IMG/VR virus record: IMGVR_UViG_3300034351_000046
Location: 1 to 55,125 of that record
Length of the DNA: 55,125 nucleotides
Source: a virus
Lineage: Duplodnaviria > Caudoviricetes
Strand: one strand, 5' to 3'
The notes beneath the pieces were generated by a model. That model saw nothing but the letters and a program-made list of their open reading frames with translations. It was not told the DNA's origin and ran no database searches. Below are positions 3,684-52,913 of this stretch, piece after piece. Each line of letters opens with the position of its first letter. The first letter of the stretch is position 1. A program made the translations under genes and the position numbers.

Positions 3684-3712
3684 AAGTTACGGACAAATGC
3701 GGACAAAGTCAA
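3684..3712 (-). promoter_or_regulatory. Sigma70-like int promoter overlapping the arm repeats
   Basis: TTGACT-17nt-TAACTT on the minus strand; the spacer consists of the two TGTCCG repeats. Confidence 0.5.
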
Positions 3713-6561: not shown

Positions 6562-7099
6562 GTTCCCCGATCAACCCGATACCCAAGGCCATCCGGTAGA
6601 ACTTGGTCCGCTCCAGCGGACTGTCCACATGGAAGGTGGGATCGATCACTGCCATGTTCCATGGGCCGGCGGGATCATCGGCCTCCTCCAGCTTGGCTGA
6701 GATGACAATGGCCAATTCGTTTGTGGCCTCCACGCCATTTGGGCTCGAAGGAATGCTCGGAATCAGCAGGCTTGCCTCCTCGGAGAAATCGCTTTCCAGT
6801 CCACTGGTATTGAAAGCGGTGGCCGCAAAGTAGTAGACCAGGCCGCGCACAAAGTTGGTGATGATACAATTGGTCACGCTCACCGAAACGATTCCGTTGG
6901 TGAGTGTGTTGTGGAGGGTGACCACTCGAGTATAGGAACGGGAGTTGGTGCCGTCGTAGATCTTGTAGCCGGCAATGTCCAATTCTGGATTGGCATCCCA
7001 GGCCACCAGGACTCGAGGGGGCTTGTTGGTGGGGGCCAGCTGCCCCACGGCCGTAAAGGCCAGGAACAGCATCATGAGAAAAAGGATGGTTCGTTTCAT
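6551..7099 (-). CDS. Secreted fibronectin type III domain protein
   Basis: Signal peptide MKRTILFLMMLFLAFTAVGQ; Fn3 motifs WDAN...IAGYKIY...YYFAATAFN..GLESDFS; C-terminal LEEADD...W...FYR segment. Confidence 0.85.
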   Translation of the reverse strand: MKRTILFLMMLFLAFTAVGQLAPTNKPPRVLVAWDANPELDIAGYKIYDGTNSRSYTRVVTLHNTLTNGIVSVSVTNCIITNFVRGLVYYFAATAFNTSGLESDFSEEASLLIPSIPSSPNGVEATNELAIVISAKLEEADDPAGPWNMAVIDPTFHVDSPLERTKFYRMALGIGLIGEPIP

Positions 7100-22369: not shown

Positions 22370-24151
22370 ATGCCGGAAGACACAATCTTCAAGTATAATG
22401 CGATCTGGCCGGCTGATGCCACTGACCTGGCGATCGAGATGGCGTGCATCCAACAAGGGGGCACCTGGTTCAAAGATAATAGGGAATGTGGGGCAGGTTT
22501 AGAGCATCACTATTCAGAAATGCGGAGGATTCTCTGGCCTCACTTAGATGATCACAGATGGGTGCAGCTATGTCTTGAGGAGGTCATCAATCATAAGATC
22601 GTGGTGCTGATGGGCGCCGGCTCCACTGGCAAAACCAATTTTGCCGCCTGGTTCTCTCTTTGCGAGTACTACTGCTTCCCCGAGCACACTTGCATTTTGG
22701 TGAGCTCTACCGATCTCCGAGGCCTTGAACTGCGTGTCTGGGGTGAAATTAAAAGCCTGCATGACCTGGCCACCAGCCGCTATGAGCTCCCCGGCCACCT
22801 CATCGAATCCAAGCACGCCATCTCCACTGACCTGGTGGATGAAGGATCCATCCGAGATCTCCGCAAAGGAATGATCGGCATTCCCTGCGTTCAAAACGGA
22901 AAATTTGTAGGCCTCGGAAAATACTTAGGCATCAAGCAGAGGAGAATGCGCCTGGTAGCAGATGAGGCCCAATTCATGGGATCCGGGTTTCTCAACGCCT
23001 TTGCCAACCTGGACAAGAACACCGATTTCAAAGCTATGGTTCTGGGCAATCCCAATGACATCCTGGATCCACTTGGCCGCGCGGCCGAGCCGAAGGATGG
23101 ATGGGGATCCCACATGGAACCCGAGAAGACCACTGTATGGGATACTCGGTTCATGAACGGAAGGTGCGTCAACCTGGTGGGCACCGATTCCCCCAATTTC
23201 GACTACCCGGAAGATGAACCCACCAAGTTTCCTTACCTGATCTCCAGGGAAAAGATTGCCAATACAAAGGCATTCTTTGGGCAGGATTCGGCCGAGTATT
23301 ACTCCCAGTGCATTGGCACCATGAAGATCGGCGCCATGGCCAAACGGGTACTGACTCGGGATCTATGCATTCAATTCAGTGCGAATTTGAGAGACGTTGT
23401 CTGGGATGGGTTCCCGATAAAAATCGGAGGCCTCGATGCTGCCTATGGTGGAGACCGCTGCATGTGCGGCTATATCGAATTCGGGAAGGATCGAGAACAA
23501 AAAACCAAGCTGTTGATCCACCCTCCAGTAGTGGTGCCCATCCTTGGCCGGAAGGATCCCGAGGAGGAAATCGCCATCTTCGTCAAAGACTACTGCCATC
23601 GGATTGGGATCTCCCCTGAGAATTTCTTTCATGACTCCACGGGCCGTGGATCCCTCGGGACAGCATTGGCCAGGATCTGGTCCGCTCATTGCAATCCGGT
23701 TGAGTTTGGAGGATCCCCAACCGAGCGGCCGGTCTCCCTGGAGCATTACATCTGGGATGAGAAACAGCACCGCAAACGGCTCAAAACCTGCCGGGAGCAC
23801 TATTCAAAATTCGTCACTGAGCTCTGGTTCTCGGTGAGGTATGCCGTGGAGGCCGGCCAGGTCCGGGGGCTGCCAGAAAGCGTCATGGAGGAATTCTGCA
23901 TGCGCGAATGGACCAAGGTGAAGGGGGACAAGATCGAGGTTGAAAAGAAAGAGGACATGAAAGAGCGCGTGGGCCGCTCCCCGGACGAAGCTGACTGGTG
24001 TTCGATTTGCGTGGAGGGCGCCAGGCGCCGAGGCTTTACCATCAGCCGGCTCACCAACGCAGAGGCAGAAACAAGAAATCGTGAGTGGATGCTCGACCTA
24101 CAACGGAAGGCATCCACTCACCGATCGGGACAGTTGAGTTACCGGAGGTAA
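22370..24151 (+). CDS. terL: Terminase large subunit
   Basis: Walker A GAGSTGKT, Walker B LVADEA, GNP coupling motif; RNase H-like nuclease motifs GLDAAYGGD, HDSTG and SPDEAD. Confidence 0.9.
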   Translation: MPEDTIFKYNAIWPADATDLAIEMACIQQGGTWFKDNRECGAGLEHHYSEMRRILWPHLDDHRWVQLCLEEVINHKIVVLMGAGSTGKTNFAAWFSLCEYYCFPEHTCILVSSTDLRGLELRVWGEIKSLHDLATSRYELPGHLIESKHAISTDLVDEGSIRDLRKGMIGIPCVQNGKFVGLGKYLGIKQRRMRLVADEAQFMGSGFLNAFANLDKNTDFKAMVLGNPNDILDPLGRAAEPKDGWGSHMEPEKTTVWDTRFMNGRCVNLVGTDSPNFDYPEDEPTKFPYLISREKIANTKAFFGQDSAEYYSQCIGTMKIGAMAKRVLTRDLCIQFSANLRDVVWDGFPIKIGGLDAAYGGDRCMCGYIEFGKDREQKTKLLIHPPVVVPILGRKDPEEEIAIFVKDYCHRIGISPENFFHDSTGRGSLGTALARIWSAHCNPVEFGGSPTERPVSLEHYIWDEKQHRKRLKTCREHYSKFVTELWFSVRYAVEAGQVRGLPESVMEEFCMREWTKVKGDKIEVEKKEDMKERVGRSPDEADWCSICVEGARRRGFTISRLTNAEAETRNREWMLDLQRKASTHRSGQLSYRR

Positions 24152-26915: not shown

Positions 26916-28139
26916 TTAGTAGTCTCCAAATTCAGCATCACTACCGAATTTGATTCTGCCATAGTGACCGTCCAAGCTAAGGCCTGCCGCGTCAGTTGCG
27001 TAGTTGTCGGATGTGTTTCCACCATCCCTGAAAAGTCTCCCAATCATGATCCCGGATTCCTTAAGGTTGGTCACCGTAGTAAGCACGGCAATTCGATGAG
27101 TGTAGGCCGTGACGATTCCGTTTGTGATCCGGTTTGTGATCGTGGTTGTCGGAAAGATTTGACCTGGGTTCGCGAATGAATACTCCAATCCCCATACCAC
27201 ATTGGTATTGGCTCCAGCTGGCGTGGCCAGGCCGGTCCAGTGAAGGTGCAGCCTCAATCCATAGGCATTGTTGGTGGTGATCCCATGCGGGATTTGAATC
27301 GAGAAATCCAACTGCTCCTCGGATCCGGCATCAAAGCCATAGACACTCAGGCCTCCAGCAAAAGTGACTTTACCTGGCTGGGCCGATGGGCTTGAAAGCG
27401 TGTTCAGAGAAATCCGAAGGTCATCCCAGGACGGCACGGTCTGCAAAAAGTTGGTTGCCTTGGCCTGGCCATTCACCTCCAACTCGGCCGTGGGGGTTAG
27501 AGTATTGACCCCGAACCACCCATTGGAATTGACCACGCTTTTGGGAGTGCCGTTGGTGTCTGCCCAGGTCCACCAATTAGTGGTGCCCACCTGTGGAAGG
27601 ACGACGATGCCGCCACCGTATAAGTTAAGGCGTGGCAGTCCGTTTACTGTTCCAAACCAGTGAGCCGGGGAGTACAGGGAATTCTCGGCCGTCATCGTCT
27701 GGGCCCAATAGGAATTGGCACTAATGCTATAAGATGGCTGGGAGTCCCGGTTGATCCCAACGGTCCCGTTGTTCACTATGAAAAGCGGAGTGCCGGTCCC
27801 GTAATCGTTAGTGTGAATCATGAAGTCCACGCCCCCGGCTGCATCCACCTGGACTCGAAAGAAGTTTGATACGATCACATCGTCGTAAAAGATCGATGGC
27901 TGCTCCACCAGTATCCCGTCAGCAAAGAGAGTGGTGCCTCCACCAAAGTATGCATTGCCGGTCAGATTGGTAAACGCCTGGTTGACCACCATGGATCCGG
28001 TTCCATTCCCAAACACAGAGTTGCCGCGCACCCAGGCCCCAGGCACGTTCGTTGTGAACATGTTTCGGAACACCGGCATCTGGGCATTGGCGAAACAGGC
28101 CAGGAAGGCCAACAGGAAAATCAGGAAGGTCTTTTTCAT
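26916..28139 (-). CDS. Signal-peptide-bearing fibre-like protein
   Basis: Signal peptide MKKTFLIFLLAFLACFANA-Q; fibre repeats (GTVGIN, GVNTLTPTAELEVNG); C-terminal WDDLR...QIPH...HLHW domain. Confidence 0.75.
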   Translation of the reverse strand: MKKTFLIFLLAFLACFANAQMPVFRNMFTTNVPGAWVRGNSVFGNGTGSMVVNQAFTNLTGNAYFGGGTTLFADGILVEQPSIFYDDVIVSNFFRVQVDAAGGVDFMIHTNDYGTGTPLFIVNNGTVGINRDSQPSYSISANSYWAQTMTAENSLYSPAHWFGTVNGLPRLNLYGGGIVVLPQVGTTNWWTWADTNGTPKSVVNSNGWFGVNTLTPTAELEVNGQAKATNFLQTVPSWDDLRISLNTLSSPSAQPGKVTFAGGLSVYGFDAGSEEQLDFSIQIPHGITTNNAYGLRLHLHWTGLATPAGANTNVVWGLEYSFANPGQIFPTTTITNRITNGIVTAYTHRIAVLTTVTNLKESGIMIGRLFRDGGNTSDNYATDAAGLSLDGHYGRIKFGSDAEFGDY

Positions 28140-28140
28140 A

Positions 28141-28524
28141 TCACGCGATTAGTAGCACCCAAGCTCCAGTGGTGTCATTCCAATACCACACCTGGCCGGA
28201 AGTCCGATTGATCCAGATCTGGCTTTCAACGCCAGGATCGGCCACGGGATCGACGGTCCTGATAACCACTCCACCAAGAGCACCTGGTGACCCAACCAGC
28301 TGACAAAGCATTTCCAGCTGCGCGGCCAACAGCTGTTTGTTGGTCATCGATGTGTAGGGATTGGAATCCGCAATAAGATCTTCAACAGAGCAGGTGGCCA
28401 TGGGATCGAGGGTTTGTTTGATCTGGCAGAGGATGGTGAGGATTGCGACTCCTAATTGCTTCTCACTGAGGCAGAGCAGGCAATCCGAATCCTGCAAGAT
28501 CGTGGTTGGGTTGCAAGTTGCCAT
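28141..28524 (-). CDS. Virion protein with two Cys helical modules
   Basis: MATC...C..CLSEKQL...ILCQI occurs twice, then a WINRTSGQVWYW tail. Confidence 0.8.
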   Translation of the reverse strand: MATCNPTTILQDSDCLLCLSEKQLGVAILTILCQIKQTLDPMATCSVEDLIADSNPYTSMTNKQLLAAQLEMLCQLVGSPGALGGVVIRTVDPVADPGVESQIWINRTSGQVWYWNDTTGAWVLLIA

Positions 28525-28612
28525 AGGCTCAAAAATGTTAGGCTAGGTCAGCACCGGGGCCGCCATCCCAGTGCTGACCACGCCTTCACCAATACCCACC
28601 GACCTGAACTTG

Positions 28613-29011
28613 TTAACGACCAGGATTGAAGAGCGTTCCGTTATTGATGCCACGCTCGATCTGGTCAACGACCATGCCCCGGACCTTTTTGGGATCCGCG
28701 CAGTTGAGGCAGACGGCCTCCTCAACCAAGGCTTCAAGATCGGTGATTCGACCTTGCTCGACGGCATACGTGGCAATCATGGCAACGGCCATTTGGAACA
28801 GCTGCCGGTCACTGAAGCAACCGGAACAACTCGCATCCTGGATCATCTGAACAGCCGTGCATTCGTTATCCTCATCGGTTGACACGATGCGGCAAAGCAC
28901 GATTGCGAGAACAAGGAAAAGCTGTTGATCCGACAGACACCGCAAACACGGATATTCGGACAGTGCCTCGGCGGTTCCTTGGGGCGCCCATCTTGGAGAA
29001 TTAGTAGCCAT
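28613..29011 (-). CDS. Protein with three Cys helical modules
   Basis: CLRCLSDQQL, CSGCFSDRQL and CLNCADPKKV. Confidence 0.8.
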   Translation of the reverse strand: MATNSPRWAPQGTAEALSEYPCLRCLSDQQLFLVLAIVLCRIVSTDEDNECTAVQMIQDASCSGCFSDRQLFQMAVAMIATYAVEQGRITDLEALVEEAVCLNCADPKKVRGMVVDQIERGINNGTLFNPGR

Positions 29012-29267
29012 AGGAATTATTCATTGCGGCCGCTTCGATCTCCTCATCGGCAGACATCATTTGCGGCCCTTCTTCGTCTTCCATTTCGGATTCTTCCGAC
29101 GAAGCCGAGGCCGAGACTTCAACTTCGTCACCATAGAGGGCGGTTACTTTCAGGGTGATCGTATCGCCTGGTTTTACCCCGTCCGCAAAGAGGCTCCGGG
29201 GCAAGAGCGCATTTTGCTCCATGTCCGAGCCAGACTCGGAGCTCATCCCGTTTTCGTCATAAGGCAT
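29001..29267 (-). CDS. Small acidic capsid-associated protein
   Basis: 88 aa with KPGDTITLKV; ends with ADEEIEAAAM, also found at the scaffold C-terminus. Confidence 0.75.
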   Translation of the reverse strand: MPYDENGMSSESGSDMEQNALLPRSLFADGVKPGDTITLKVTALYGDEVEVSASASSEESEMEDEEGPQMMSADEEIEAAAMNNSYGY

Positions 29268-29289
29268 AGGTGTCCTTTCGTTAAGGAGA

Positions 29290-29320
29290 GGGCCCTGGTC
29301 CTCGCTCAGAACCAGGGCCC
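29290..29320 (-). terminator. Stem-loop after the major capsid gene
   Basis: GGGCCCTGGT/ACCAGGGCCC, a 10-bp perfect stem; weak U-tract, so it may be a stabilising hairpin. Confidence 0.5.
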
Positions 29321-29335
29321 ACCCGTGGGATTGCC

Positions 29336-30661
29336 TTACGGACAAGGACTATTCGCGCTCGAGTAATCCTGAGTCACGTAGGTGGGCGGGGTCTGACAGA
29401 CCGGCACCTCGATCACGCAAGCAGGCTCGCGCAAGTGGAGGATCACCTCCATGAACTCGGGATACATCTTCTTGGTCGAGAATTTGAAGTCTGCAATAAA
29501 CTTACCCTTGTTCCGGCGGCTGTTATCAACAGCAATCGGAATGGTCAGGCCATTGGCGTCAACAGCCGTGCCGCAAGTCAGGTTGTCCATGACAAACTGC
29601 CATCGACCACCAAAACTGCGCGGGACGAAGGGCATCATGGGATGCACCTGGGCCGCATCGAGGACCAATTGTTTCATCGCCCGACGATGCCAGATGAACG
29701 TGGCCTGGATCGGTGCATTGATATAGGCATCATTGACGATGCCCCGAATGCCGCTCGAGGCCGGCTCATTGTGATACGGGAAGACCTGGTTAAGGGTCAC
29801 GCCGTCGTTGAGAAGCTGGAACCTGATCGGGTGGAGATCAGCCTTCAACATGAAGTTGCCGACTCGGCCAGCCCATCCATACTTGTAGTATTCCTCGGCG
29901 CCAGCCCCGAAGGCCTGGAACCGCCAGGAATCTTTCAAGTTGGAATCACCCTCGATGAGGTCCCAGATGGTCTCCATATCGGTCAGGACCTCCAATTCAG
30001 GAGGCTGGCCCATGGGCACCTTGCCCAGAGCTCCATTGAGGATCTGGGTTTGGAGCCGGCGCCGAAGCATGTTCACCGTGAGCTTCGAGGTGGGGAGAAC
30101 AGAGGGAACCACATTGATGAGGTTTCCGGTTTCGGTGAAGGTAAAGGCCGTGAGGCCCCGGCCACCACCGCCGCCAGCCACCCAGTGGTAGCCAGCATAA
30201 CGAAAGGCTTCCGAACGGATCCGGTTACCGATGATCAATTCCTGGGCTGCCCGGAGTTGCTCCACGGCGTTGGCGTAGTGTTCCTTCGCCCGATCCATGG
30301 TCAACATCTGGTCATAGCAGAACAGCTGAGAGGTGAAGCTCTTCTGCTCCAGGTGGTATTCGTCTCGGGTAGAGCCGAATCCGATTTCCGTTTCGCAAGG
30401 ATCGCACGGTTGGCCAACGCAGGTGGTGTCATTGACATTCTGCCAGGCCTGGGAGTGATCCACCGCTACACGGTTGAACCGATCATAGGTATGACTGGTC
30501 CCGTCGAAAGCTTTGAACTGTCCAATCTCCATCATGCCATTGATGGAGCCCACGGGAGTAATATCCTTCAGGATTTCCTCATCGAGGTGCTCCGTCCGAC
30601 GCATGATGATATTGGTAAAATCAGCACACGAAATTTGAGGAGTACAGCCTAAACTTGCCAT
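29336..30661 (-). CDS. Major capsid protein
   Basis: 441 aa directly downstream of portal and scaffold, with its own structured leader and a 3' hairpin. Confidence 0.75.
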   Translation of the reverse strand: MASLGCTPQISCADFTNIIMRRTEHLDEEILKDITPVGSINGMMEIGQFKAFDGTSHTYDRFNRVAVDHSQAWQNVNDTTCVGQPCDPCETEIGFGSTRDEYHLEQKSFTSQLFCYDQMLTMDRAKEHYANAVEQLRAAQELIIGNRIRSEAFRYAGYHWVAGGGGGRGLTAFTFTETGNLINVVPSVLPTSKLTVNMLRRRLQTQILNGALGKVPMGQPPELEVLTDMETIWDLIEGDSNLKDSWRFQAFGAGAEEYYKYGWAGRVGNFMLKADLHPIRFQLLNDGVTLNQVFPYHNEPASSGIRGIVNDAYINAPIQATFIWHRRAMKQLVLDAAQVHPMMPFVPRSFGGRWQFVMDNLTCGTAVDANGLTIPIAVDNSRRNKGKFIADFKFSTKKMYPEFMEVILHLREPACVIEVPVCQTPPTYVTQDYSSANSPCP

Positions 30662-42018: not shown

Positions 42019-43050
42019 ATGACTGAAAATCCGTTATACGCAAACCTAGAAGAACGCATCGAGGCCATTGAAAGACTCGGTGCCATTTGGGCTCGATCCG
42101 GCGCGTTTAAATGCGATCGAGTCGAGCAGGGCCAGGCGATTCTGTCCTTCTGCATGGGCAGCGGCATCACGCCGCTCGAATACCTGGCCACCTACCACAA
42201 CATGGCCGGCAAGCCCCAGAAGCTGGCCTTGGCCTGTTTGGCCGAAATCCGAATGAAGGGCGCCAAGCACAAATGGCTCAGCGCATCGGATGACCGTGAA
42301 AAAGCCATTCTGGAGATCACCTTCGAGGGTGCCACGGTCAAAGTCCAATACACCATCGAGGATGCCAGGGCCCAGGGCCTCGTTAAAGCCGACAGCAACT
42401 GGGTCAAGTCGCCCTCCTACATGCTCCGCGCCCGAGCCATCACCACAGCCATTGGAATGCTCGCGCCCGAGATCGTGGCCGGCGCCGAAGCTGCGCCTGA
42501 CGAAGCCCCCCAGGTGGAGAAACCCCTGGATCTGGGCAAAGATAAGCCAGCCGCTCCGCAACAAGAGGAGAAGGAACTGGCTGAAATGGGGCTGGCACCA
42601 GCCACCCCAAAAACAGAACCAGCCGCCCCCAAAAAGGAGCCAGCCAAGCCCAAAAAGGAGCCAGCCAAGCGCCGTTCCATTTCAGTGCCGGCACCCGGAG
42701 AGGAAGAAGGGGAGACCCCAATTCCCCCTCCAACCCGAAAGACGATTGAGCCTGAAGGAACCGCCGAGCCGCCTAAGCCGGTGGAAAAGGTGCAGTTTGG
42801 AGTCGAGGACCTTGACCCCGCTTTAGTTGATGAAATCGGCCGAGTCTGCAACGGACACTTCCTGGCCGTCGCTAATTGGATGATCAAAGAAAAGTGGATC
42901 CCGGCCCCCGACAAGCCGCTCGAGCATGAAGCCTATGCTGCCCATCATCTCCGAGCCACGCTGCCCAAACTAACCAAGCCACGCGCCAAAAAGATCATTG
43001 AGCAAAAAGATGCATTTTTACGCGCAATCACTGAACCCTCAAAACCATGA
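42019..43050 (+). CDS. RecT-like single-strand annealing protein
   Basis: YTIEDARAQGL...NWVKSPSYMLRARA; directly upstream of an exonuclease gene. Confidence 0.7.
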   Translation: MTENPLYANLEERIEAIERLGAIWARSGAFKCDRVEQGQAILSFCMGSGITPLEYLATYHNMAGKPQKLALACLAEIRMKGAKHKWLSASDDREKAILEITFEGATVKVQYTIEDARAQGLVKADSNWVKSPSYMLRARAITTAIGMLAPEIVAGAEAAPDEAPQVEKPLDLGKDKPAAPQQEEKELAEMGLAPATPKTEPAAPKKEPAKPKKEPAKRRSISVPAPGEEEGETPIPPPTRKTIEPEGTAEPPKPVEKVQFGVEDLDPALVDEIGRVCNGHFLAVANWMIKEKWIPAPDKPLEHEAYAAHHLRATLPKLTKPRAKKIIEQKDAFLRAITEPSKP

Positions 43051-44102
43051 AAAAGAAAATCCCAGAACCACCGACACCAAAGTTCAGGCCATCTTCCCTG
43101 CCCATGCTCGGGAAGTGCCCCAAGTTTGAAGGCAAGCCATCAACCTACACCGATGAAGGCACCGAACGTCACGATGCCTTTGCTGAATACTTCCGGGGCA
43201 ACAAGGAGGCCCTGGAGGCACTCAACGATGAATTCCTTGAGAACATGGAGTGGGCAGTCCAGTACGTTGAAACAAGGGCTGCCGTCAATGACTACCCCCT
43301 CGAGATCGAACAACTTAACACCGGCACCCTTCCCAATGGCATGACCGTCCAGGGGACACCGGATCTGGTGTGTGGCCCGGATCTGTTCGATCTGAAATGG
43401 CGTTTCCGATACTACGACCCCCAAATGGCCTGCTATGCCTTCATGGTGCTGGAACGAACCAAACTCCCGGACCTGACCACGCATGTCCTTTACGCCAACA
43501 ACCAGGCCGCACGATCCAGAAAATGGACTATCGAGTCTGCCTGGAAGGAGATCGAAGACATCATCACCATGGTAGAGTCCGCATGGGCCACCGCCACGCC
43601 TTGTGAGTATTGCGGCTGGTGCGCCCGGAACCTGATTTGCGAAGCCTTGATCCAGCAGGTTAATACGGCCATTGCCGCCAACCCCGATTGGAACCTGCCC
43701 CAATGGCACTCCTCGGAAATCAAAACTGGCAAGGACATGGGCCTTGCGTTACGCATCGCGCGTACTCTGTCGGATTGGTGCGAGAGTGTGGAATTCCACG
43801 CCCGAGAAATGGCACTCAAGGAAGGCATGGTGCCCGAGGGATTCAATGTGGTGACCCGTGCCGGTGGCCGCTACATCGATGAGGTCATGGCAGCCTACAA
43901 CGCCATCCGCTTGCCCCAGGATGAATTCCTGAAGGCCTGCGCGGTTAAACCCAAGGCCCTGTTCGATGCCTACGCTCTTTTCCATGGAATGAAAAAGGCG
44001 CCGGCTGAGCGGGATTGCATGGAGAAGCTTGGCCCCCTGGTCAAGCGCAAGCCCAACGTCGTAATGCTCGTTCAAGACAAACCCAAAAAGAAAGACAAGT
44101 AA
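43047..44102 (+). CDS. PD-(D/E)XK Cas4-like exonuclease (DUF2800-like)
   Basis: PSS...CP, GTERH, GTPD, DLK, QMACYA and CEYCGWC motifs. Confidence 0.85.
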   Translation: MKKKIPEPPTPKFRPSSLPMLGKCPKFEGKPSTYTDEGTERHDAFAEYFRGNKEALEALNDEFLENMEWAVQYVETRAAVNDYPLEIEQLNTGTLPNGMTVQGTPDLVCGPDLFDLKWRFRYYDPQMACYAFMVLERTKLPDLTTHVLYANNQAARSRKWTIESAWKEIEDIITMVESAWATATPCEYCGWCARNLICEALIQQVNTAIAANPDWNLPQWHSSEIKTGKDMGLALRIARTLSDWCESVEFHAREMALKEGMVPEGFNVVTRAGGRYIDEVMAAYNAIRLPQDEFLKACAVKPKALFDAYALFHGMKKAPAERDCMEKLGPLVKRKPNVVMLVQDKPKKKDK

Positions 44103-44103
44103 C

Positions 44104-44634
44104 ATGCCAGTTTTCACTGATTCTGATTCCAATTATGAGATCGTGCCCGAAGGGGATTACATCCTCTGCGTGTTCGAGTTTTCAACCGACATCTCATCCG
44201 GCCAGAAAACAGCCGGCGCCGAGCGGTTCAACATCGTGTTCACCGTGGAAGGAACCAATGCCAAGGTGCGCGAAACCTTGATCGATGCAGAGCAGACACT
44301 CTGGAAAATCGATCAATTCGTCAAAGCCGCCGGCATCCGCTCCCTTCAAAAGGGTGATGCGTTTCACTTCGAGCAGGACCGCGCCGAAGAATTAAACGTG
44401 CCGTGGATCAACCCCATGGGCTTGCGCGTGCATGCTCGGGTGGTCGAGGAGACCTACACCTCGAGGAGGTCAGGTAAGCAAGTCACCAAAAATGCCGTGG
44501 CCCTCTACTATACCGATAAGGAACCGCTCAAGCCGAATCCCGAGCTCCGCAACAAACCCACCAGCAAACCCAAACAGGAGGAATCCCAAGAGTCCACCAG
44601 TCCTTGGGATGCCAAGCCCAAGACACCGTTCTGA
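44104..44634 (+). CDS. DUF669-like ssDNA-binding protein
   Basis: VPEGDY N-terminus, terminal PF, and position in the recombination cluster. Confidence 0.7.
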   Translation: MPVFTDSDSNYEIVPEGDYILCVFEFSTDISSGQKTAGAERFNIVFTVEGTNAKVRETLIDAEQTLWKIDQFVKAAGIRSLQKGDAFHFEQDRAEELNVPWINPMGLRVHARVVEETYTSRRSGKQVTKNAVALYYTDKEPLKPNPELRNKPTSKPKQEESQESTSPWDAKPKTPF

Positions 44635-44651
44635 TTCATACCACAGTTCGC

Positions 44652-46172
44652 ATGAAACCCAGGCCCTACCAAACAGAGGCCGTCCTTAAGATTCGACACG
44701 GTTTTAAGGAGTTCAAAAAGCAACTGGCAGTCCTCCCGACTGGCAGTGGCAAAACCATTCTCTTCTCCTGGCTTGCTGAGGAAATCCAGCCGCTCAAGAC
44801 ATTGATTCTTTGTCATCGGCAGGAGCTCCTCACGCAGGCCGTGGAGAAGTTGAGGATGGCCACCGGGATCCGCGCCGAGTTGGAAAAAGCGGAGTGGACT
44901 GCCTCCGCTGAAGCCCCGGTAGTGGTGGCCAGTGTTCAGAGCATGATCCGAAGGCTGGACCGGTGGCCATCTGATCACTTTCACCTGGTGGTAGCCGATG
45001 AGGCCCACCATGCCGTCTCAGAATCCTGGCAGAAGGTTCTGAACCATTTTGACAGCTACGTTTTGGGATGCACTGCCACGCCTGATCGAGCGGACCAACG
45101 CACGCTCGGTGAGTACTTCGAGAACGTAGCTGTCGACATTTCATTGGTACGCCTAATTCGAGAGCAATACCTCTCCAACATCGTCATCAAAAGCGTGCCC
45201 CTTAAAATCGACCTGACCAAGGTCCACCTCCAGGGTGGGGACTTCGATGAGGTGGAGCTTGGCCACCTCCTGGAGCCCTACCTGGTCACGATTGCCCAGG
45301 CCATCCGAGACCACGCAAGTTTCCGCAAGGTCCTCGCCTTCCTTCCACTGATCGATACCAGCCGAAAGTTTGTCGAGGCCTGCCGCCAGGTGGGACTCAC
45401 AGCCAAGCACGTAGACGGTAAATCCCCTGACCGCGCAGAGATCCTCCAGCAGTTCGACAACAACCAATTTGACGTTCTGTCAAACGCGATGTTGCTTGTT
45501 GAGGGCTACGATTCCCCCAGCATCGATTGCATCGTTGTCTTGCGCCCTACCAAGAGCCGGCCGCTTTTCGCGCAGATGGTGGGACGGGGCACTCGGGTCC
45601 ATCCGGCCAAGGAAAACCTGCTTCTGCTGGACTTTCTTTGGCTCCATGAACGGCATCGGATTGTCCACCCTGCCGATCTGATGGCCCATGACGCCGAGGA
45701 GGCTGATATCGTTACCGAGCTCTCCCAGAAGCTCTCTGCCCAGGGCGCCTCGGAGGAACAGCTGGACCTGCTCACCCTGGCCGCTAGCGCCACTGAAGAG
45801 CGCGAACGTAAGTTGCGCGAACGCCTGGCCGAGCTCGCCAGCCGCAAGGCCAAATTCATCAGCCCTGAGCAATTCTGCTTGGAGCATGGCGAGACCGAAA
45901 CGGCCTTCTATGAACCCACCATGAAGTGGGAAGGCAAGCCGATCACACGCAAGCAAATGAAGTATTTGGAACGAACCAAAATCGATCCAGACCTCATTAA
46001 GGGGCGCGGCCACGCCTCCAAGCTCCTGGACGTTATGTTCAAACACAAAGACCTGGAGCTCGCCTCCCAAAAGCAACGGTGGTCCATGCAGCAACATGGC
46101 CACCCAGATCCATGGATGGCAACCAAAGCTGAAGCCAGAAGATTCTTCGCCCAACTCAACCGAAAGAAATGA
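44652..46172 (+). CDS. SF2 DEAH-box helicase
   Basis: RPYQ, LPTGSGKT, DEAHH, TAT, NAMLLVEGYD and QMVGRG motifs. Confidence 0.95.
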   Translation: MKPRPYQTEAVLKIRHGFKEFKKQLAVLPTGSGKTILFSWLAEEIQPLKTLILCHRQELLTQAVEKLRMATGIRAELEKAEWTASAEAPVVVASVQSMIRRLDRWPSDHFHLVVADEAHHAVSESWQKVLNHFDSYVLGCTATPDRADQRTLGEYFENVAVDISLVRLIREQYLSNIVIKSVPLKIDLTKVHLQGGDFDEVELGHLLEPYLVTIAQAIRDHASFRKVLAFLPLIDTSRKFVEACRQVGLTAKHVDGKSPDRAEILQQFDNNQFDVLSNAMLLVEGYDSPSIDCIVVLRPTKSRPLFAQMVGRGTRVHPAKENLLLLDFLWLHERHRIVHPADLMAHDAEEADIVTELSQKLSAQGASEEQLDLLTLAASATEERERKLRERLAELASRKAKFISPEQFCLEHGETETAFYEPTMKWEGKPITRKQMKYLERTKIDPDLIKGRGHASKLLDVMFKHKDLELASQKQRWSMQQHGHPDPWMATKAEARRFFAQLNRKK

Positions 46173-46819
46173 ATAAAACAATCTACATCCCACCGAAGCG
46201 AGTTAAACGCATCGACAGACCGCTTGCCGTTTTGGCGATCAGAGACTGGAAGGCAGTAACCCTGGAAAATCCAGGCCCCGTTCTCTTCGATCCACCAATG
46301 AAGATCGATATCACTTTCGGGTGGACGGATCTGACTCGCTATAAAAGAGCCTGCAAGCTGGCATGCCGGCAAAGGATAGAATCCCAAATGCAGGGGCACC
46401 ACCACCATAAAGGAGCAAGAGATGGGGATGCCTGGAGAACCCACATCGAAGGATGTTGTGGCCAGGAACCGATCTCGATCCTCAAAGGTGTTCCACCCAA
46501 CCAAAAATTGAACGTCTTTTTTCATGGGGCCGATGTAGACGGGGATGAAGTTAAAACCAGAGACCGGGATCTAACGGATCGAATTGATCTTTTTGTCGAC
46601 TACGGAGACATCATCATCGACCGCATTTATTGGCTGGTAGTTGGGCGAGCTCCTATCTTCCATGTCTTTGGCTGGATCCCAGGCGATGAACTTAAGAAGC
46701 GCGGGAAGGCGATTTACGTTCCGGGCAGGGGAGACAGCTTTGGGATCAATCAGGCCTTGCTATACAAGGGGATGCCGCCCTACAAAAATCGGCAAATCAA
46801 ACCTGACTCTGAATCATGA
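46169..46819 (+). CDS. Hypothetical PD-(D/E)XK-like phage protein
   Basis: GADVDGDEVKT...VFGWI. Confidence 0.6.
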   Translation: MNKTIYIPPKRVKRIDRPLAVLAIRDWKAVTLENPGPVLFDPPMKIDITFGWTDLTRYKRACKLACRQRIESQMQGHHHHKGARDGDAWRTHIEGCCGQEPISILKGVPPNQKLNVFFHGADVDGDEVKTRDRDLTDRIDLFVDYGDIIIDRIYWLVVGRAPIFHVFGWIPGDELKKRGKAIYVPGRGDSFGINQALLYKGMPPYKNRQIKPDSES

Positions 46820-47382
46820 AAATGAAAATTATCAACGGGCTCCATCGGACCCTCTGCCCCACATTCCCGAGATCCGGCAACACCTTTGTCATGCTGACCC
46901 TGGGTGATTATTTCGGCACTGATCGGTTTCGCTTTGCTGATGTTTACAAGTTTCCTGAACAAGGATTTCAGAAAGACCCAAAATGCGTAATGCAGAAAAC
47001 CCACGATTTTGACTTTGTTGATCAACCCCAAAAGCAATGGAAACAGTTAGTCCAGATCCGCAATCCGCTCGATGCGCTGGCCAGCTGGCAAGTCCTCAAA
47101 ACCAAGGAAGGAACCGCCCCCAACAAACCAAGGCAATGGTGGAAAGAACAAATGGACTACTATGCCAAGTTCGTTAAAAAGTGGATTCTCGACGATGTCC
47201 CAAATCGCCTGGTGGTGACCTACGAAAAGCTGATGGCCGATCCGGTTGGAGTCATGTGTGACATCGTCCTTTTTATAGAGCATGAACCGAGGTCAGTTGA
47301 TTTTGAACGCATGGGGCAAATCGTTGGCATTCGTCTCAAACGCACACAGGGAATTTATCCAAGACCCTATGTCCAACTCTAA
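46816..47382 (+). CDS. PAPS-dependent sulfotransferase
   Basis: 5'-PSB loop FPRSGNT, KTHD, 3'-PB motif RNPLDALAS, and YEKL. Confidence 0.85.
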   Translation: MKMKIINGLHRTLCPTFPRSGNTFVMLTLGDYFGTDRFRFADVYKFPEQGFQKDPKCVMQKTHDFDFVDQPQKQWKQLVQIRNPLDALASWQVLKTKEGTAPNKPRQWWKEQMDYYAKFVKKWILDDVPNRLVVTYEKLMADPVGVMCDIVLFIEHEPRSVDFERMGQIVGIRLKRTQGIYPRPYVQL

Positions 47383-47647: not shown

Positions 47648-47883
47648 GAATTTTCCAGGAACGCAAGGTGGCCTATGCGGTGGAGGGCCCCTACGAAGAT
47701 CAAATGCGACTTACTACCGGAGATCGAAAAACCATGGATGAGGCACTCGAAGCCGCCAGGGAATTCGAGAAAGAAATGCCGATTCAGAAATTACGGCTTG
47801 TAAAGACAGTGACGATTGTCTATACAGAAATCCTTCCGTATCCACAACGGCACAGCAGGTGCCCTAAATGCGCGACAAAATGA
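47644..47883 (+). CDS. Hypothetical protein
   Basis: 79 aa; ATGA overlaps at both ends. Confidence 0.7.
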   Translation: MRIFQERKVAYAVEGPYEDQMRLTTGDRKTMDEALEAAREFEKEMPIQKLRLVKTVTIVYTEILPYPQRHSRCPKCATK

Positions 47884-48353
47884 GCGATTGGAAATATTTG
47901 AACAGATGCCGGATCCCGCCAGGGAAATCCAAGATGTATGGATCCCGCCCCTCGGACGGGTTCAATGGCGCCTTTCACATCACCATCAATGGGCTGGAGC
48001 TCCTGGCCCTGGCCTCCGATGGGATGGGGTGGCAGCATGTCTCCGTTTCAATTGCTCGCCAGCCGACACACACACCCAGCTGGCACATAATGTGCGCGTG
48101 CAAAAACCTTTTCTGGGAGGACACCGACACGGTCATGCAGCTGCACCCTCCCAAGGCTCTTTACGTAAACCATCACCCAGGATGCCTGCATCTGTGGAAA
48201 CCCACGATGGATGGCGTCATCATCCCGCTGCCGCATCCCGCCATGCTGGGATGGGAAATGGAAGATGGGAAATCGGCCCTGGAGGTCCCAGGCCTGCCCC
48301 AAGAGGTTCAGGAGTGGATCGAGAAGCATTACGGGAAAAGGGCCCCCGAATGA
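47880..48353 (+). CDS. Conserved phage protein (WxHVSVS...HPxCLHLW family)
   Basis: GWQHVSVS, PSW..MC..K.LFW, QLHP and YVNHHPGCLHLW motifs. Confidence 0.85.
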   Translation: MSDWKYLNRCRIPPGKSKMYGSRPSDGFNGAFHITINGLELLALASDGMGWQHVSVSIARQPTHTPSWHIMCACKNLFWEDTDTVMQLHPPKALYVNHHPGCLHLWKPTMDGVIIPLPHPAMLGWEMEDGKSALEVPGLPQEVQEWIEKHYGKRAPE

Positions 48354-48503
48354 GAGACGGGTGACCGGAAGGACACTACTACTTCCAATCACCCGTCATT
48401 CTCAAAACCACAGTTCGCGACTGTGGTTCTAACGATTTTTTGACTTTCAGCGCAAGCTGAAAATCGAGAAACCAAAAAACCAAAAAAGCAGAAAGACCAC
48501 AGT

Positions 48504-49250
48504 ATGAAGAGATCAGAGGCTAAAGAGCCTATTGGAAATCCCGTCCTCCCAGGCGGGAAGGAAAAGAAGGAACGCATCATCATCAAGCCGCCCAACTTCG
48601 GGCTGGCTCAATTCACGATCGAGGGGCTCACGCAATTGTGCGTCCATCGATTCTCACAGAAGGTCCTCGAAAGCCTGCGCGGAGAACCCGATGCAGAAAC
48701 CGGGGAGAAAGCACCATCCAAAGCCAAAAAGAAGCCCAAGAAAAAGTACTCCGACGAAGTGCTTTATCATGACGCTCGCTACATCAGCCCGGAGGGCTGG
48801 GACGGAATCCAGGCCAGTGCCTTCCGTAACTGCATGATCTCGGCATGTCGCGTGGGCGGCTTTGAGATGACCAAAGCAAAGCTGAGCCTGTTCTGTGTTC
48901 AGGACGGGTTCGATGCCACTCAACCTCAATTCGGCATCGTCCGAATCTACGGTGAACCGCGCATGGCGATTGACATGGCCAGGGTCTCCCGAGGGGATCC
49001 CTATCCTGTTGTGCGTCCGGTTTACATGCCCTGGCACGCGAAAGTGAAAATCCGATGGGACGCAGATCAATTCCATCTGGATGACGTTGCCAACCTCCTC
49101 TACCGAGCCGGCGTGCAGGTTGGTGTCGGTGAGGGACGCTGGGACAGCAAAAAGTCTGCTGGCCTTGGTTGGGGGCAATTCGCAATCACGGGCATTGAAA
49201 GACTCACTCTCGAAATCCCACAACTACCACCGATTCCACCCATTAAATGA
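48504..49250 (+). CDS. RAMP/Cas7-like RNA-binding protein; putative effector of the adjacent array
   Basis: RRM-like layout: first strand FTIEGLTQLCVH, IQASAFRNCM (cf. the RAMP IPxSxxKG helix), and a C-terminal Gly-rich loop GVQVGVGEGR...GLGWGQF. Confidence 0.7.
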   Translation: MKRSEAKEPIGNPVLPGGKEKKERIIIKPPNFGLAQFTIEGLTQLCVHRFSQKVLESLRGEPDAETGEKAPSKAKKKPKKKYSDEVLYHDARYISPEGWDGIQASAFRNCMISACRVGGFEMTKAKLSLFCVQDGFDATQPQFGIVRIYGEPRMAIDMARVSRGDPYPVVRPVYMPWHAKVKIRWDADQFHLDDVANLLYRAGVQVGVGEGRWDSKKSAGLGWGQFAITGIERLTLEIPQLPPIPPIK

Positions 49251-49804
49251 GCACCAAAACCAAAGTCGAATTCGGCTATGCGCCGATGCCCAACTCGAAG
49301 CTGAACAAAACTCAGGTTCAGGTTGTGGCCTCCGAATTCAAACGCCTGGAAGAAAAACATCGGGTTCTCAAGCCGGCCACGATTGTCGAGGCCGCTCGCC
49401 CCCAAGGGTCCAGGCTACACCCATTCTTCACCTGGGATGATCGGGCAGCCGCCGAGCAATACCGGCTGATCGAAGCGCAGATGCTTTCCCGATCTGTCCG
49501 CATATTCCAGGTGGGAATCCCACTGGCTGAACAGCCGGTTGTTCGCGCTTGGGTCCATGTGACCGCACATAGCGAGGAGACCGAGTTTGAAGGCCCAGGC
49601 TACATCAGTGTGAATCGTGTTTTGGACGACACTCGCTACCGGGAGCAGATGCTCCAGGAAGCCAGAGATGACATCCGCATTTTTCAGCGCAAGTACGAGG
49701 ACCTCCTCCTTGTGACGGGGGCCATGGAAAGCGTTGAGAAAGTCAAAAGCAAGCTAGCTCCAAAGCCGCGCAGGCGCGGTGGGGCGCGTCACAAAGCGAC
49801 CTAG
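49247..49804 (+). CDS. Conserved partner protein of the RAMP-like gene
   Basis: ATGA-coupled; LKPATIVEAAR..GSRLHPFFTWDDRAAAEQYRL..A motif; function unknown. Confidence 0.75.
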   Translation: MSTKTKVEFGYAPMPNSKLNKTQVQVVASEFKRLEEKHRVLKPATIVEAARPQGSRLHPFFTWDDRAAAEQYRLIEAQMLSRSVRIFQVGIPLAEQPVVRAWVHVTAHSEETEFEGPGYISVNRVLDDTRYREQMLQEARDDIRIFQRKYEDLLLVTGAMESVEKVKSKLAPKPRRRGGARHKAT

Positions 49805-49828
49805 CAAGCAAAGCCCTGTAGTGGCGGC

Positions 49829-50743
49829 GCAGGCGAGTCATGGCCGAGAGTGATTGGTGGAGAGTGTCGATGCCAGGTTAGACATGGCAATGCTGGCACG
49901 ATGCCGCTCCTCCGAGCAAGTCGAGTTCAAACCGAGCGCGATGCAGTATGTCAAGACATGCCATTGCAGGCTCGACCAGCCCCGTCTTGATGCGGCTGGG
50001 AAGGGCAAAGCACAACAAGACATGTCCTGGTTTGGTGCGACCGAGCCAGGCAAGGTCAGGCGTGTCGCGACAAGGCAAAGCTGGCGCGACAATGCGAGTC
50101 CAGCCTGAGATGGGTGCGACGATGCCTGACATGGCAAAGCAATGCAGGCAAGGCGCGATCTGGCGAGCCAGCGCACGTAATGGCGGGGCGCGATGCGTCC
50201 CTGCGCGACATGGCAAAGCTGGCGAGTCGAGCCTCGTTGAGGCGAAGCTAAGCTGAGTTGGGCAATGCAGGCAAAGCGCGAAATGGTCTGGCCTTTTACG
50301 ACGAGGCGGGTCTAAGCGATCCCAGGCTGGCCAAGCGCGAATTGTCAGAACCGAGCGAGCTATGGATTGCCAAAGCAATGCAGGCGGTGAGTGGGGAGCA
50401 TTGACTGGCGAGACTAGTCAAGCCACGACAGTGCAGGCAAGTCGAGTTCGTGCCTAGCCCAGCGTTGCGTGACATGGCTGAGAAGAGCAACGCAGGCAAG
50501 TCGAGGCGGGACACGTACTGACTCGGCACGGCATGACACAGCATGGCAGGCATGGGATGGCGAGACTAGTTGTAGTTTAGCCCGGCCTGGTCCGTCTGAG
50601 CAGGCATGGAATTGCTGGTCAAGTTGTAGCAAGGCGGAACCTGGATTGTCTGGGTGAAGCCAAGCAGGCATGCCCACGCAAAGCAGGGCCAAGTCTAGTG
50701 AAGCCTGACAGTGCAGGTTTGGCTGGGTTTGGCTTGTCGGTAA
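49829..50743 (+). ncRNA. Pentamer-periodic guide-like array (NN + triplet units, GC(A/T)GGC delimiters)
   Basis: 15 delimiters; 12 of 14 intervals equal 5n+9 nt; no credible ORF; the NN strings decode to phage protein motifs. Confidence 0.85.
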
Positions 50744-50747
50744 ACCC

Positions 50748-50786
50748 GAGTGGCCGGTAGGTTGATTCCTGCCGGCCGCTCACTTT
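50748..50786 (+). terminator. 14-bp stem-loop closing the array
   Basis: GAGTGGCCGGTAGG-TTGATT-CCTGCCGGCCGCTC (two G-U pairs), followed by ACTTT. Confidence 0.65.
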
Positions 50787-50801
50787 CAATGGAGTGAACT
50801 T

Positions 50802-52913
50802 ATGGAATTGATCGAACAAGCCGCACGTTATCTTCAGTCGATCCCGCCGGCCATCTCTGGCCAGGGTGGACATTCTCAAACCCTCAACGCCGCCCGAGCC
50901 CTGGTCTGGGGCTTCAACCTTCCCGAGGCTCAAGCCATGGAGCTCCTGAGTCAGTGGAACCAAGGGTGCCAGCCACCCTGGAGCCAGAGGGAGCTCGAGC
51001 ACAAAATCAAGGAGGCCAACAGCAAGGAATTTGGTAAACCGCGCGGCTATCTCCTCTCCAAGAACCAACGCTATCTTTCGCGCAACGCCGCTCGACCAGG
51101 CGTCGAGTCCAAACCCGAGGTGGCTGCCAAACAATACGATCTGAGCACCGCCCAGGAAATCGAACTGCCCAAGGGCAAGCGCGACGGGTTTTTCCAGTTG
51201 CTGGAGGCCTGCTTTAAACCTGGTGAAGGCGTGCGCGTGATGGGCGGCATGGATGAGGAGGGGCATGTGCGGTGTGATCCCCACGGGGGCGTGGTCCTTT
51301 CCAGGGAGGAGTGGATCAGTAAGCTCGAACAGAAGGGCAGCATCAACGCGCTCTACTATCGCCTGGGAGGTCCTCCGCTGGGGGTTTACCTGGGCATCAA
51401 CCCGATGAAAATCGGGGGCGGCAACAAGGATGCCGATGTCACGGCCTATCGCCACTGCCTGCTGGAGTTTGACAAGATCTCCATTCGCGAGCAGTGGGCC
51501 CTGATCGTCCAGTCCAACATCCCCTGCGCGGCCGTCATCTACTCGGGCAACAAATCGATCCACGCCTGGGTGAAGGTCGACGCGCCAGACCGCAAGACCT
51601 ACGACGAACGGGTCAGCGCCATTTACGATCACTTCCGGGAATATCAACCAGATGTCAAAAACAAGAACCCCTCCCGGTTCTCCCGGTGCCCGGATGCCAA
51701 GCGCGATGATACGGTGCAGTATCTCCTGGGCCTGAACCTGGGCGCCGAGTCCTACACCGAGTGGAGCAAGCAACTCCTGGTGGAGGGAATCGGCATCACC
51801 TATTCGGCCAAGGAGGTGCGCGAATACGATCCCACCGAGGACGGCATGACCGTGGCCGGGGATCAATGGCTTCGCAAGGGCGGGTCCTGCATCCTGGTGG
51901 GGCCCTCGGGCGTGGGCAAGTCCAGTCTGGCCTGCCAGATTGCCATGTGCTGGGCCCTGGGCCGGCCCTGCTTTGGAGTGACGCCGGTCAAGCCGCTCAA
52001 GATCCTCTTCCTTCAAGCCGAGAATGACCTGGCCGATTTGCACTCGATGAACATCGGGATTTACCAGGGCCTGGGAATACTCGATCAACCGGAGGCCTTG
52101 GAGATGATCGACCGCAACCTGGTCTACAACCACAACGTGGCCGACACGGGCCACTCCTTCATCGTCGCGTTGCAGAAGCTGGTGGACTACCACGAACCGG
52201 ACCTGGTGATTGTCGATCCCCTGCTCTCATTCATTGGCGATGACGCCAGCCGGCAGGAGATCGTGGGCCGGTTCTTCCGCAACTGGCTCAACCCGATCCT
52301 GCACAATTCCAACGTGGCCTTCATGGGCGTGCATCACACCGGCAAGCCGCCTCAGCAGCAGGAAGGCAAGGGCGGCAAAAAGCCCCCGCGTCGATCCCTG
52401 GCCGAGTGGTCCTACCAGATGATGGGCAGCAGTGAGTTGACCAACTGGGCGCGTGCGGTGGTCCTGCTCAATCAGCTTCCCGAGGGCGACTTCGAGTTGA
52501 TCTTCTCCAAGCGCGGCAAGCGTGCCCAGGCCACGCATCCCAATGGGAGCCCCACGCAAATCGTCCGATTGCGGCATAGTCCTCTGGCAATTTTCTGGGC
52601 CCAGGAGGATCCCCCGGAGGAACCGGTCACCGCTTCGGAATCCGAGCCCCAGGCGGCACCCAACATGACAGCTGGACAAATGGTCCAGACAGTGGCTAGC
52701 TCCAATCTTTATGAGTTCACCAATTCGATCCCCAAAGAGGGCATAAGCAATGCCAGACTGCGCGAGATGATAGTGGACTACGCCGCCAACACTCTGGGGA
52801 TCGACCTGGGCGAACCGAGATCCGGGCGTGTCACGCGCACGCTGGAAGCCCTAGTCCGCAACCACAAACTGAGCCGCAAAGGAAAACTCTACATCAAGGG
52901 GCACGATGCATAA
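50802..52913 (+). CDS. Primase-helicase (AEP-like plus AAA_25/RepA-like helicase)
   Basis: PPAISGQGG N-domain; LLEFD, SGNKSIHAW and NPSRFSR primase motifs; GPSGVGKS, IVDP and VHH helicase motifs. Confidence 0.9.
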   Translation: MELIEQAARYLQSIPPAISGQGGHSQTLNAARALVWGFNLPEAQAMELLSQWNQGCQPPWSQRELEHKIKEANSKEFGKPRGYLLSKNQRYLSRNAARPGVESKPEVAAKQYDLSTAQEIELPKGKRDGFFQLLEACFKPGEGVRVMGGMDEEGHVRCDPHGGVVLSREEWISKLEQKGSINALYYRLGGPPLGVYLGINPMKIGGGNKDADVTAYRHCLLEFDKISIREQWALIVQSNIPCAAVIYSGNKSIHAWVKVDAPDRKTYDERVSAIYDHFREYQPDVKNKNPSRFSRCPDAKRDDTVQYLLGLNLGAESYTEWSKQLLVEGIGITYSAKEVREYDPTEDGMTVAGDQWLRKGGSCILVGPSGVGKSSLACQIAMCWALGRPCFGVTPVKPLKILFLQAENDLADLHSMNIGIYQGLGILDQPEALEMIDRNLVYNHNVADTGHSFIVALQKLVDYHEPDLVIVDPLLSFIGDDASRQEIVGRFFRNWLNPILHNSNVAFMGVHHTGKPPQQQEGKGGKKPPRRSLAEWSYQMMGSSELTNWARAVVLLNQLPEGDFELIFSKRGKRAQATHPNGSPTQIVRLRHSPLAIFWAQEDPPEEPVTASESEPQAAPNMTAGQMVQTVASSNLYEFTNSIPKEGISNARLREMIVDYAANTLGIDLGEPRSGRVTRTLEALVRNHKLSRKGKLYIKGHDA

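Follow-up and report, generated by a model that had tools for sequence, protein, structure and literature searches.

Systems called VIPR (Viral Interference Programmable Repeat) are CRISPR-related, RNA-guided silencers of DNA that were first described in 2026 (10.64898/2026.04.26.720920). Three bioRxiv preprints of that year deal with them (10.64898/2026.04.26.720920, 10.64898/2026.04.26.720927, 10.64898/2026.10.15.759431). The systems are mostly located in viruses and comprise a small ancestral RAMP, Vipr, and usually one accessory gene, vap. Their guide RNAs (vrRNAs) consist of 9-16 YNNGG repeats (Y, pyrimidine), and the NN pairs recognise double-stranded DNA (dsDNA) with one skipped base; 'a related consensus' is allowed, and the repeats are reported to be internally degenerate and to occur in the variants NNNGG, YNNNG and NNNNG (10.64898/2026.04.26.720920). 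In 'staggered' arrays, as the legend of fig. S18 puts it, vrRNAs come from positions that overlap by 1 nt, the end of one being the start of the next, and such arrays are described without the structured invariable 3' tail that is a feature of type II (10.64898/2026.04.26.720920). Of the seven types, with vap1-6, only type II was studied at the bench (10.64898/2026.04.26.720920). DNA binding and silencing were shown experimentally for the Vipr of Escherichia phage SUSP1, whose system is of type II (10.64898/2026.04.26.720920), and cryo-electron microscopy (cryo-EM) of SUSP1-type Vipr places one protomer on each 5-nt unit, with the triplet held and the NN presented (10.64898/2026.04.26.720927). 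Here, we analysed a phage contig of 55,125 bp, the entire IMG/VR record IMGVR_UViG_3300034351_000046 (the window), and found at positions 48354-50800 a cassette that is very probably a VIPR system of a temperate-type phage, made of a RAMP gene, an accessory gene and about 15 staggered guides.

From 5' to 3', the cassette consists of a 150-nt leader, an open reading frame (ORF) of 248 aa, and a second ORF of 185 aa whose ATG overlaps the TGA of the first as ATGA; behind these come about 0.95 kb in which no ORF is credible and, last, a hairpin. It lies within the replication/recombination module of the contig, between a DUF7694 gene (47868-48353) and a primase gene. The elements listed in an initial annotation of this DNA (leader, 248-aa protein, coupled 185-aa gene, periodic tract and closing hairpin) were all present where they had been placed (Table 1). 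Its statement that cas1, cas2, cas3 and a CRISPR array are absent also held, as PADLOC detected no Cas family at E <= 1e-5 among the 60 ORFs of the contig and Tandem Repeats Finder detected no CRISPR-like repeat array in it. We favour a VIPR system because of the fold of the 248-aa protein, its homology to SUSP1 Vipr, the co-occurrence of its relatives with arrays and the anatomy of the array itself.

The 248-aa protein matched no Pfam family and no PDB sequence (phmmer), and it matched PHROG 4652, a family of unknown function, at E 1.1e-5. The protein belongs to a large family that carries no name. Homologues numbered 1290 at E <= 1e-3 among 1509 candidates, and a profile search of the family returned 2872 clusters formed at 50% identity, for 1679 of which E was <= 1e-10. 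The protein has a C-terminal glycine-rich loop, GVGEGRWDSKKSAGLGWGQF. Residues G207, E210, G211, R212, D214, S215, G220, G222, W223 and G224 were invariant in an alignment of 37 homologues, as were H48 and R171. An AlphaFold2 model built from 37 sequences (predicted local distance difference test, pLDDT, 80.8; predicted template modelling score, pTM, 0.74) contained a beta-alpha-beta core, a beta-hairpin at 152-174 and the C-terminal glycine-rich loop. The initial annotation had proposed a RAMP/Cas7-like protein, and Foldseek returned an RNA recognition motif (RRM)/RAMP fold for the model, with 82 PDB matches at E <= 1e-3; the best was Cmr4 (6s6b_I, 1.3e-6), and Csm3, gRAMP and the type VII Cas7 were also matched. 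The independent VIA-align comparison, all against all, agreed. Its top three Z scores (9.7, 9.0 and 9.0) belonged to Cmr-beta and Csm3 chains, including 6s6b_I of Cmr-beta (Z 9.7, 150 residues aligned, root-mean-square deviation 4.2) and 6ae2_B of Csm3 (Z 9.0, 144 residues aligned, root-mean-square deviation 3.4), and nearly all of the first 46 rows were CRISPR RAMPs. Sequence identity to the solved RAMP chains was 9-16%. Together, the modelled structure supports a Cas7-type RAMP fold. The predicted protein shares with the class 1 CRISPR RAMPs (Csm3, Cmr4, Cas7) the RRM core, the thumb-like beta-hairpin and the C-terminal glycine-rich loop. In contrast to class 1 CRISPR loci, the contig yielded no cas1, cas2, cas3, cas10 or repeat-spacer array by PADLOC and Tandem Repeats Finder, and the step here is 5 nt rather than 6 nt.

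The initial annotation had also noted a resemblance to viral VIPR systems. Such systems are described in the preprints, and the profile of the 248-aa family finds vipr in the SUSP1 genome (KT454805.2) with exactly one match (E 6.2e-5), which lies inside the coding sequence 28474-29061 on the minus strand. That coding sequence specifies 195 aa and is followed by one of 146 aa (vap1, 28031-28471), and GGTNN arrays flank the pair on the same strand. In hhalign the family and SUSP1 Vipr aligned over nearly the full length (169 columns, profile positions 39-228 against 5-189 of 195 residues) with an E of 1.1e-5 and a probability of 81.9%, a value that rests on a single-sequence template. H17, R138, R179, M72, D177 and W178 of SUSP1 Vipr are RNA contacts by cryo-EM (10.64898/2026.04.26.720927). 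H17, R138, R179 and M72 align with H48, R171, R212 and M111 here and are thus kept, D177 aligns with E210, and W178 aligns with G211, which is a glycine across the whole clade. On these profile alignments, the 248-aa protein is a predicted homologue of SUSP1 Vipr, and we refer to its gene as vipr. Both loci have vipr, an accessory gene and a downstream array on one strand. They differ in that the vrRNAs of SUSP1 form separate units of ~100 nt, all of which bear flanking sequence and a structured 3' tail, whereas the units here abut without a tail and a single hairpin stands at the end of the array. An upstream vrRNA is present in SUSP1 as well; the sliding score described below detected none at this locus.

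The tract behind the 185-aa ORF is periodic. Base identity across 49805-50790 was 0.40 at lag 5 and 0.35 at lag 10, compared to 0.20-0.23 at lags 1-3. To follow this signal along the contig, we used a sliding score, defined as the identity at lags 5 and 10 minus that at other lags in 200-nt windows. The score had a mean of -0.007, a standard deviation of 0.031 and a maximum of 0.227 over the whole contig, and all 18 windows scoring above 0.08 started at 49801-50651, with none elsewhere in the 55 kb, so that the 5-nt periodicity is confined to 49801-50850. The 90.7-kb SUSP1 genome served as a positive control; there the score marked 27601-28050 and 29051-29350 and nothing else, and these are its two array regions. 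The tract was then parsed with a five-phase hidden Markov model (HMM) that gave equal priors to one-base-short and one-base-long steps. Between 49805 and 50745 the parse contained 17 phase shifts; every one was one base short and none was one base long. The intervening units were 74, 114, 64, 74, 49, 59, 54, 59, 54, 54, 64 and 49 nt long, all of the form 5n-1, and there were three further irregular pieces. The motif xGC-[A/T]-GG[C/T] stood at 15 of the 17 shifts, and many units shared the end motif GACAT GGCAA xGC, which is short and has no hairpin of its own. The composition over the five phases was G 0.66, G 0.61, C 0.75 (plus T 0.15), N, N. Tandem Repeats Finder reported a period-10 repeat at 50716-50734. 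The initial annotation had described one pentamer-coded array; the 5-nt periodicity was recovered, but the tract is not one continuous run and instead comprises about 15 staggered units. This layout matches the published staggered VIPR arrays, in which a stand-alone small RAMP and one accessory gene occur in a phage with GGY-type/NN pentamers and successive guides share a boundary, giving units of 5n-1 nt.

Some guide units resemble each other, sharing stretches of 21-22 nt at 82-86% identity (49916-49937 with 50437-50458, and 50398-50418 with 50550-50570). This suggests growth of the array through duplicated units whose free positions changed afterwards.

Co-occurrence of homologues with 5-nt periodic arrays had been set as a check by the initial annotation. 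An IMG/VR scan with the single protein found no relative; an alignment-based scan gave 351 relatives on IMG/VR contigs, from which 80 loci were kept. In 78 of the 80, a pentamer array adjoined the homologue (the exceptions were loci L032 and L044), and 15.3% of the 200-nt windows within 1.5 kb of a homologue scored high compared to 0.65% of those beyond 2 kb. Of the outcomes that the initial annotation had named as refuting, neither a non-RRM fold nor a lack of co-occurrence was seen. A further 38 loci were found in genomes and metagenome-assembled genomes of many phyla, all at no more than 54% identity over full-length matches, and a metagenome scan for close relatives found only one distant locus. 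The relatives' arrays are laid out alike, their GGC triplets are cleaner and their junctions read GGCAGGC; without exception the G-rich anchor is found on the strand of vipr. Phase shifts in 83 of these arrays were of -1 in 675 cases and of +1 in 156, and the commonest intervals across 133 arrays were 49, 54, 44 and 59 nt. Relative to the homologue, the arrays lie directly downstream, behind the accessory gene, and at times also upstream. The accessory gene stands between two arrays in L056 (4601-4860 and 5290-5775) and in L082 (4586-4809 and 5392-5564), and the order of gene and array is therefore flexible within the clade. L082 is Cyanophage Cy-LDV1 (BK059895.1), the closest named phage, whose g34 and g33 are annotated as hypothetical proteins. 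Its g34 matches 80% of the 248-aa protein at 43.7% identity, and its g33 is 35% identical to the 185-aa protein (E 1.5e-18). Cy-LDV1 thus shares the gene pair and has GGCNN arrays with GGCAGGC junctions; it differs in having one array between the two genes and a second behind g33, with triplets that are mostly clean GGC. An apparent difference by phase in the substitution rate between pairs of arrays (0.05-0.06 in the anchor against 0.27-0.31 at NN, 18 pairs) was discounted, as most pairs were ~80% identical and may be unrelated arrays in register.

By analogy with the studied systems, the cassette would work as follows. The downstream array would be transcribed on the vipr strand and processed at its junctions to yield about 15 vrRNAs, 49-114 nt in length, in which units of 5 nt, made of a GGY-type anchor triplet and two free bases, follow one another. 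The one-base-short steps (xGC-A/T-GGC) would delimit these guides, so that the end of one is the start of the next. Given the homology with SUSP1, each unit would be bound by one Vipr protomer in a filament, with the anchor triplet flipped out and the NN presented; the initial annotation had proposed one protomer per 5-nt unit as well. The string of NN would then read dsDNA by skipping one base at every step (NNx NNx ...), and this reading may silence transcription of a competing mobile element.

Several observations weigh against such a system. The alignment with SUSP1 Vipr has its single-sequence template, and the contact residue W178 has a glycine as its counterpart in this clade. The units have no structured 3' tail of their own, and two single units, when folded, gave z scores of 0.36 and -2.4. 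In the text of the discovery preprint, small RNA sequencing confirmed the ribozyme-interspersed and single-vrRNA architectures, and the staggered one is not among them (10.64898/2026.04.26.720920). Among the sequencing runs listed as containing this DNA, none is on record as RNA. No target was found: under the skip rule no match in the contig exceeded shuffled controls, the window's guides had no target in 868 kb of related loci, and two exact guide-derived patterns yielded 0 and 5 hits, the latter unrelated and at chance level, in small exact-match searches of IMG/VR, all of these searches being far smaller than those of the discovery preprint. The lack of a self-target in the contig also counts in favour of a VIPR system, as that preprint reports the same of its own systems (10.64898/2026.04.26.720920). 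Lastly, the low share of GGY triplets, described next, could mean that part of the array has decayed.

In kind, the system is already published; what stands out here is the unusual looseness of its repeats. The 178 triplets of the array comprised GGC (42), AGC (26), GAC (19), GTC (18), TGC (14), GGT (9), GCC (8), GAT (5) and others, and GGY made up 29%, whereas the median over 83 arrays of relatives was 52% and only three of these arrays were as low. These anchors are much looser than in the published staggered arrays, with G at the first position only (60 triplets) and G at the second only (55) each as common as GG (56). The initial annotation had called the triplets degenerate. They are, as its GGC, AGC, GAC, GTC, TGC and the rest attest, but the degeneracy is not free: at least one G was kept in 171 of the 178 triplets and a pyrimidine at the third position in 163. 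Only 7 triplets had neither G, compared to 22-23 expected under independence (Fisher odds ratio 0.12, p 4.5e-8), and none of 100 arrays simulated along the same phase path, with emissions drawn independently, reached an odds ratio of 0.12 or as few as 7 such triplets. A significant negative association between the two Gs was found in none of 119 relatives' arrays. The loosening is therefore constrained to at least one G plus a pyrimidine. These data bear directly on a first alternative, that this is a VIPR locus with a largely decayed array, in which the genes are intact and most guides no longer load Vipr, leaving a relic or a few working units. The low GGY fraction and the searches without a target would fit such a locus. 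Decay, however, would erase phase and punctuation, and here all 17 shifts are of -1 and the units measure 5n-1; the third-position pyrimidine and the avoidance of triplets without G are likewise retained, and both ORFs are intact with their ATGA overlap. We consider extensive decay improbable. The scarcity of triplets without G, together with the kept phase and punctuation, points to purifying selection on a relaxed anchor.

The G-loop of the protein may bear on this pattern. In the window protein and its three closest relatives (64-70% identity), a tryptophan, W213 in the window protein, follows the G-loop arginine, and the loop of this sub-clade (P0001-P0004) reads GEGRWDSK; in 68 of 71 relatives the residue is a proline. 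A link between this tryptophan and the loose triplets is only a conjecture. It is a speculative and rather doubtful extension that the P0001-P0004 Vipr reads a relaxed anchor (GNY/NGY, one G plus a pyrimidine, with the two Gs compensating for each other) and that the one-base-short step itself ends the filament.

A second alternative accepts the RAMP filament but would have it act on RNA, or in another role such as regulation of genes of the phage itself, rather than in skip-rule silencing of foreign DNA. The nearest solved folds, Csm3 and Cmr4, are those of RNA-targeting type III systems, and when 465 guides from 96 loci were compared with the 868 kb of related loci, no skip length gave a match of at least 80%. 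Against this stands the homology to SUSP1 Vipr, the protein with experimentally demonstrated DNA binding and silencing, and self-regulation of the phage by base pairing would leave self-matches, of which the phage genome held none above the shuffled controls. Such a role is quite unlikely, somewhat more so than decay. That the tract instead acts at the DNA level, for instance as an iteron field or replication origin next to an incidental RAMP gene, is suggested by its position between replication genes and directly upstream of the primase gene, but it is scarcely credible given that 78 of 80 loci combine the tract with the RAMP gene although their gene context otherwise differs, that its G-rich anchor is always on the vipr strand and that the Cy-LDV1 gene pair and arrays adjoin excisionase and recombination genes and not a primase gene. 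The reading of the cassette as a VIPR system therefore remains the one we favour, in agreement with the initial annotation.

The 185-aa protein matched PHROG 15946, also of unknown function (E 5.5e-18). No Pfam family was found for it, nor a consistent one among 41 homologues, and comparison with PDB sequences gave nothing usable. H58, F61, W63, A68, R73, A77 and Y119 were invariant in the 41 homologues. Its AlphaFold2 model (pLDDT 93.8) has an alpha/beta domain at 9-127 followed by a long helix of ~40 residues at 129-170. Foldseek found no PDB match to this model at E <= 1e-3, the matches in BFVD were three uncharacterised phage proteins, and the ESM Atlas search with the protein gave viral clusters only. 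In VIA-align the best match was a putative nucleic-acid-binding protein at Z 6.0, a value within the tool's stated noise range, and winged-helix regulators appeared at Z 4.4-5; the winged-helix-like likeness of the modelled protein is only a lead. BLASTP detected no similarity to SUSP1 vap1, so the two accessory proteins are unrelated by this measure. In 60 of the 80 viral loci, a homologue of the accessory gene adjoined the vipr homologue and shared its strand. DNA binding is predicted for the vaps of types II, VI and VII (10.64898/2026.04.26.720920), which would fit here. The 185-aa protein is the vap-like accessory of this clade and possibly a nucleic-acid binder.

Structured elements were found at both ends of the cassette. 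The leader contains three hairpins (~48356-48397, 48406-48428 and 48436-48471) followed by an A-rich stretch ahead of the ATG. Its minimum free energy (MFE) was -52.8 kcal/mol compared to -26.9 +/- 3.8 for 200 shuffled sequences (z -6.8), none of which folded as well. The sliding score revealed no pentamer periodicity in the leader, and Rfam gave no match to it; the only Rfam match was a sub-threshold one to ctRNA_pGA1 (24.6 bits against a cut-off of 45). A consensus scan found no sigma-70 promoter and no intrinsic terminator in the cassette, leader included. The 86-nt stretch at 50716-50801, which holds the closing hairpin, had an MFE of -42.4 kcal/mol (z -4.9) when folded as RNA. The terminator scan does not call this hairpin because no T-run stands behind it. 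Hairpins at the end of the array also occur in relatives L026, L056 and L065. The closing hairpin likely marks where the array transcript ends, or serves as a 3' cap.

The contig is that of a temperate-type phage and encodes an integrase, a large terminase, a RecT-like protein, an exonuclease, a helicase and a primase (Table 1). It also carries a methyltransferase gene, has a GC content of 56.4%, and no tRNA gene was found in its 55 kb. Most structural genes of the phage had no family match of any kind. Among them, the 2729-aa ORF at 7099-15288 on the minus strand had no PHROG match at E <= 1e-5, and its sole Pfam match, to GP88, was sub-threshold (20.6 bits against a cut-off of 24.4). Between the helicase gene and the cassette, a 188-aa gene (46816-47382, plus strand) matched Sulfotransfer_1 weakly (E 1.3e-4, 21.9 bits against a cut-off of 22); a sulfotransferase-like match is unusual for a phage replication module. 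The RecT-like gene contains a 21-nt tandem repeat (42598-42668, plus strand, 3.4 copies, 84% matches) that would encode a repeated heptapeptide. Loose Shine-Dalgarno-like 4-mers preceded only 8 of 28 gene starts on the contig, which suggests a host with Shine-Dalgarno-poor translation initiation; vipr itself has an A-rich tract upstream of its start in place of such a motif. In four DNA runs from three studies, contig pieces matched 48354-50800 over up to 1218 nt without a single differing letter. This phage genotype therefore occurs repeatedly in different samples, and because the pieces are identical where they overlap, they say nothing on the variability of the NN positions.

Table 1. Position of the cassette elements and of other annotated genes in the 55,125-bp window.
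Feature	Coordinates	Strand	Remark
Integrase	2423-3712	-	
Large terminase	22370-24151		
RecT-like gene	42019-43050		
Exonuclease	43047-44102		
ResIII/DEAD helicase	44604-46172		
Leader	48354-48503	+	Between DUF7694 gene and vipr
vipr (predicted)	48504-49250	+	Stand-alone Cas7-like RAMP, 248 aa
Accessory (vap-like) gene	49247-49804	+	185 aa
Putative staggered vrRNA array	49831-50714	+	Five-phase HMM parse
Array units 1-5	49831-49853, 49854-49893, 49894-49967, 49968-50081, 50082-50145	+	
Array units 6-10	50146-50219, 50220-50268, 50269-50327, 50328-50381, 50382-50434	+	Unit 10 with one internal extra step
Array units 11-15	50435-50493, 50494-50547, 50548-50601, 50602-50665, 50666-50714	+	
Terminal short pentamer run	50715-50745	+	GGTTT GGCTG GGTTT GGCTT ...; behind last junction; HMM parse
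Closing hairpin	50748-50781	+	14-bp stem, just ahead of primase gene
Primase/AAA_25 protein	50802-52913		

The locus leaves the picture of what VIPR is unchanged. It is a clean example of the staggered layout and helps to map the diversity of VIPR, and it adds a conserved accessory family of unknown fold class that accompanies this Vipr clade in most loci. It also provides natural evidence that phase and punctuation can remain strict in an array whose anchor has loosened to one G and a pyrimidine, suggesting that some contacts are dispensable. If the one-base-short step does end the filament, no nuclease would be needed to part the guides. If the relaxed anchor is true, it would be a distinct variant of the vrRNA code and would show how far the protein needs GGY, with a bearing on guide design.

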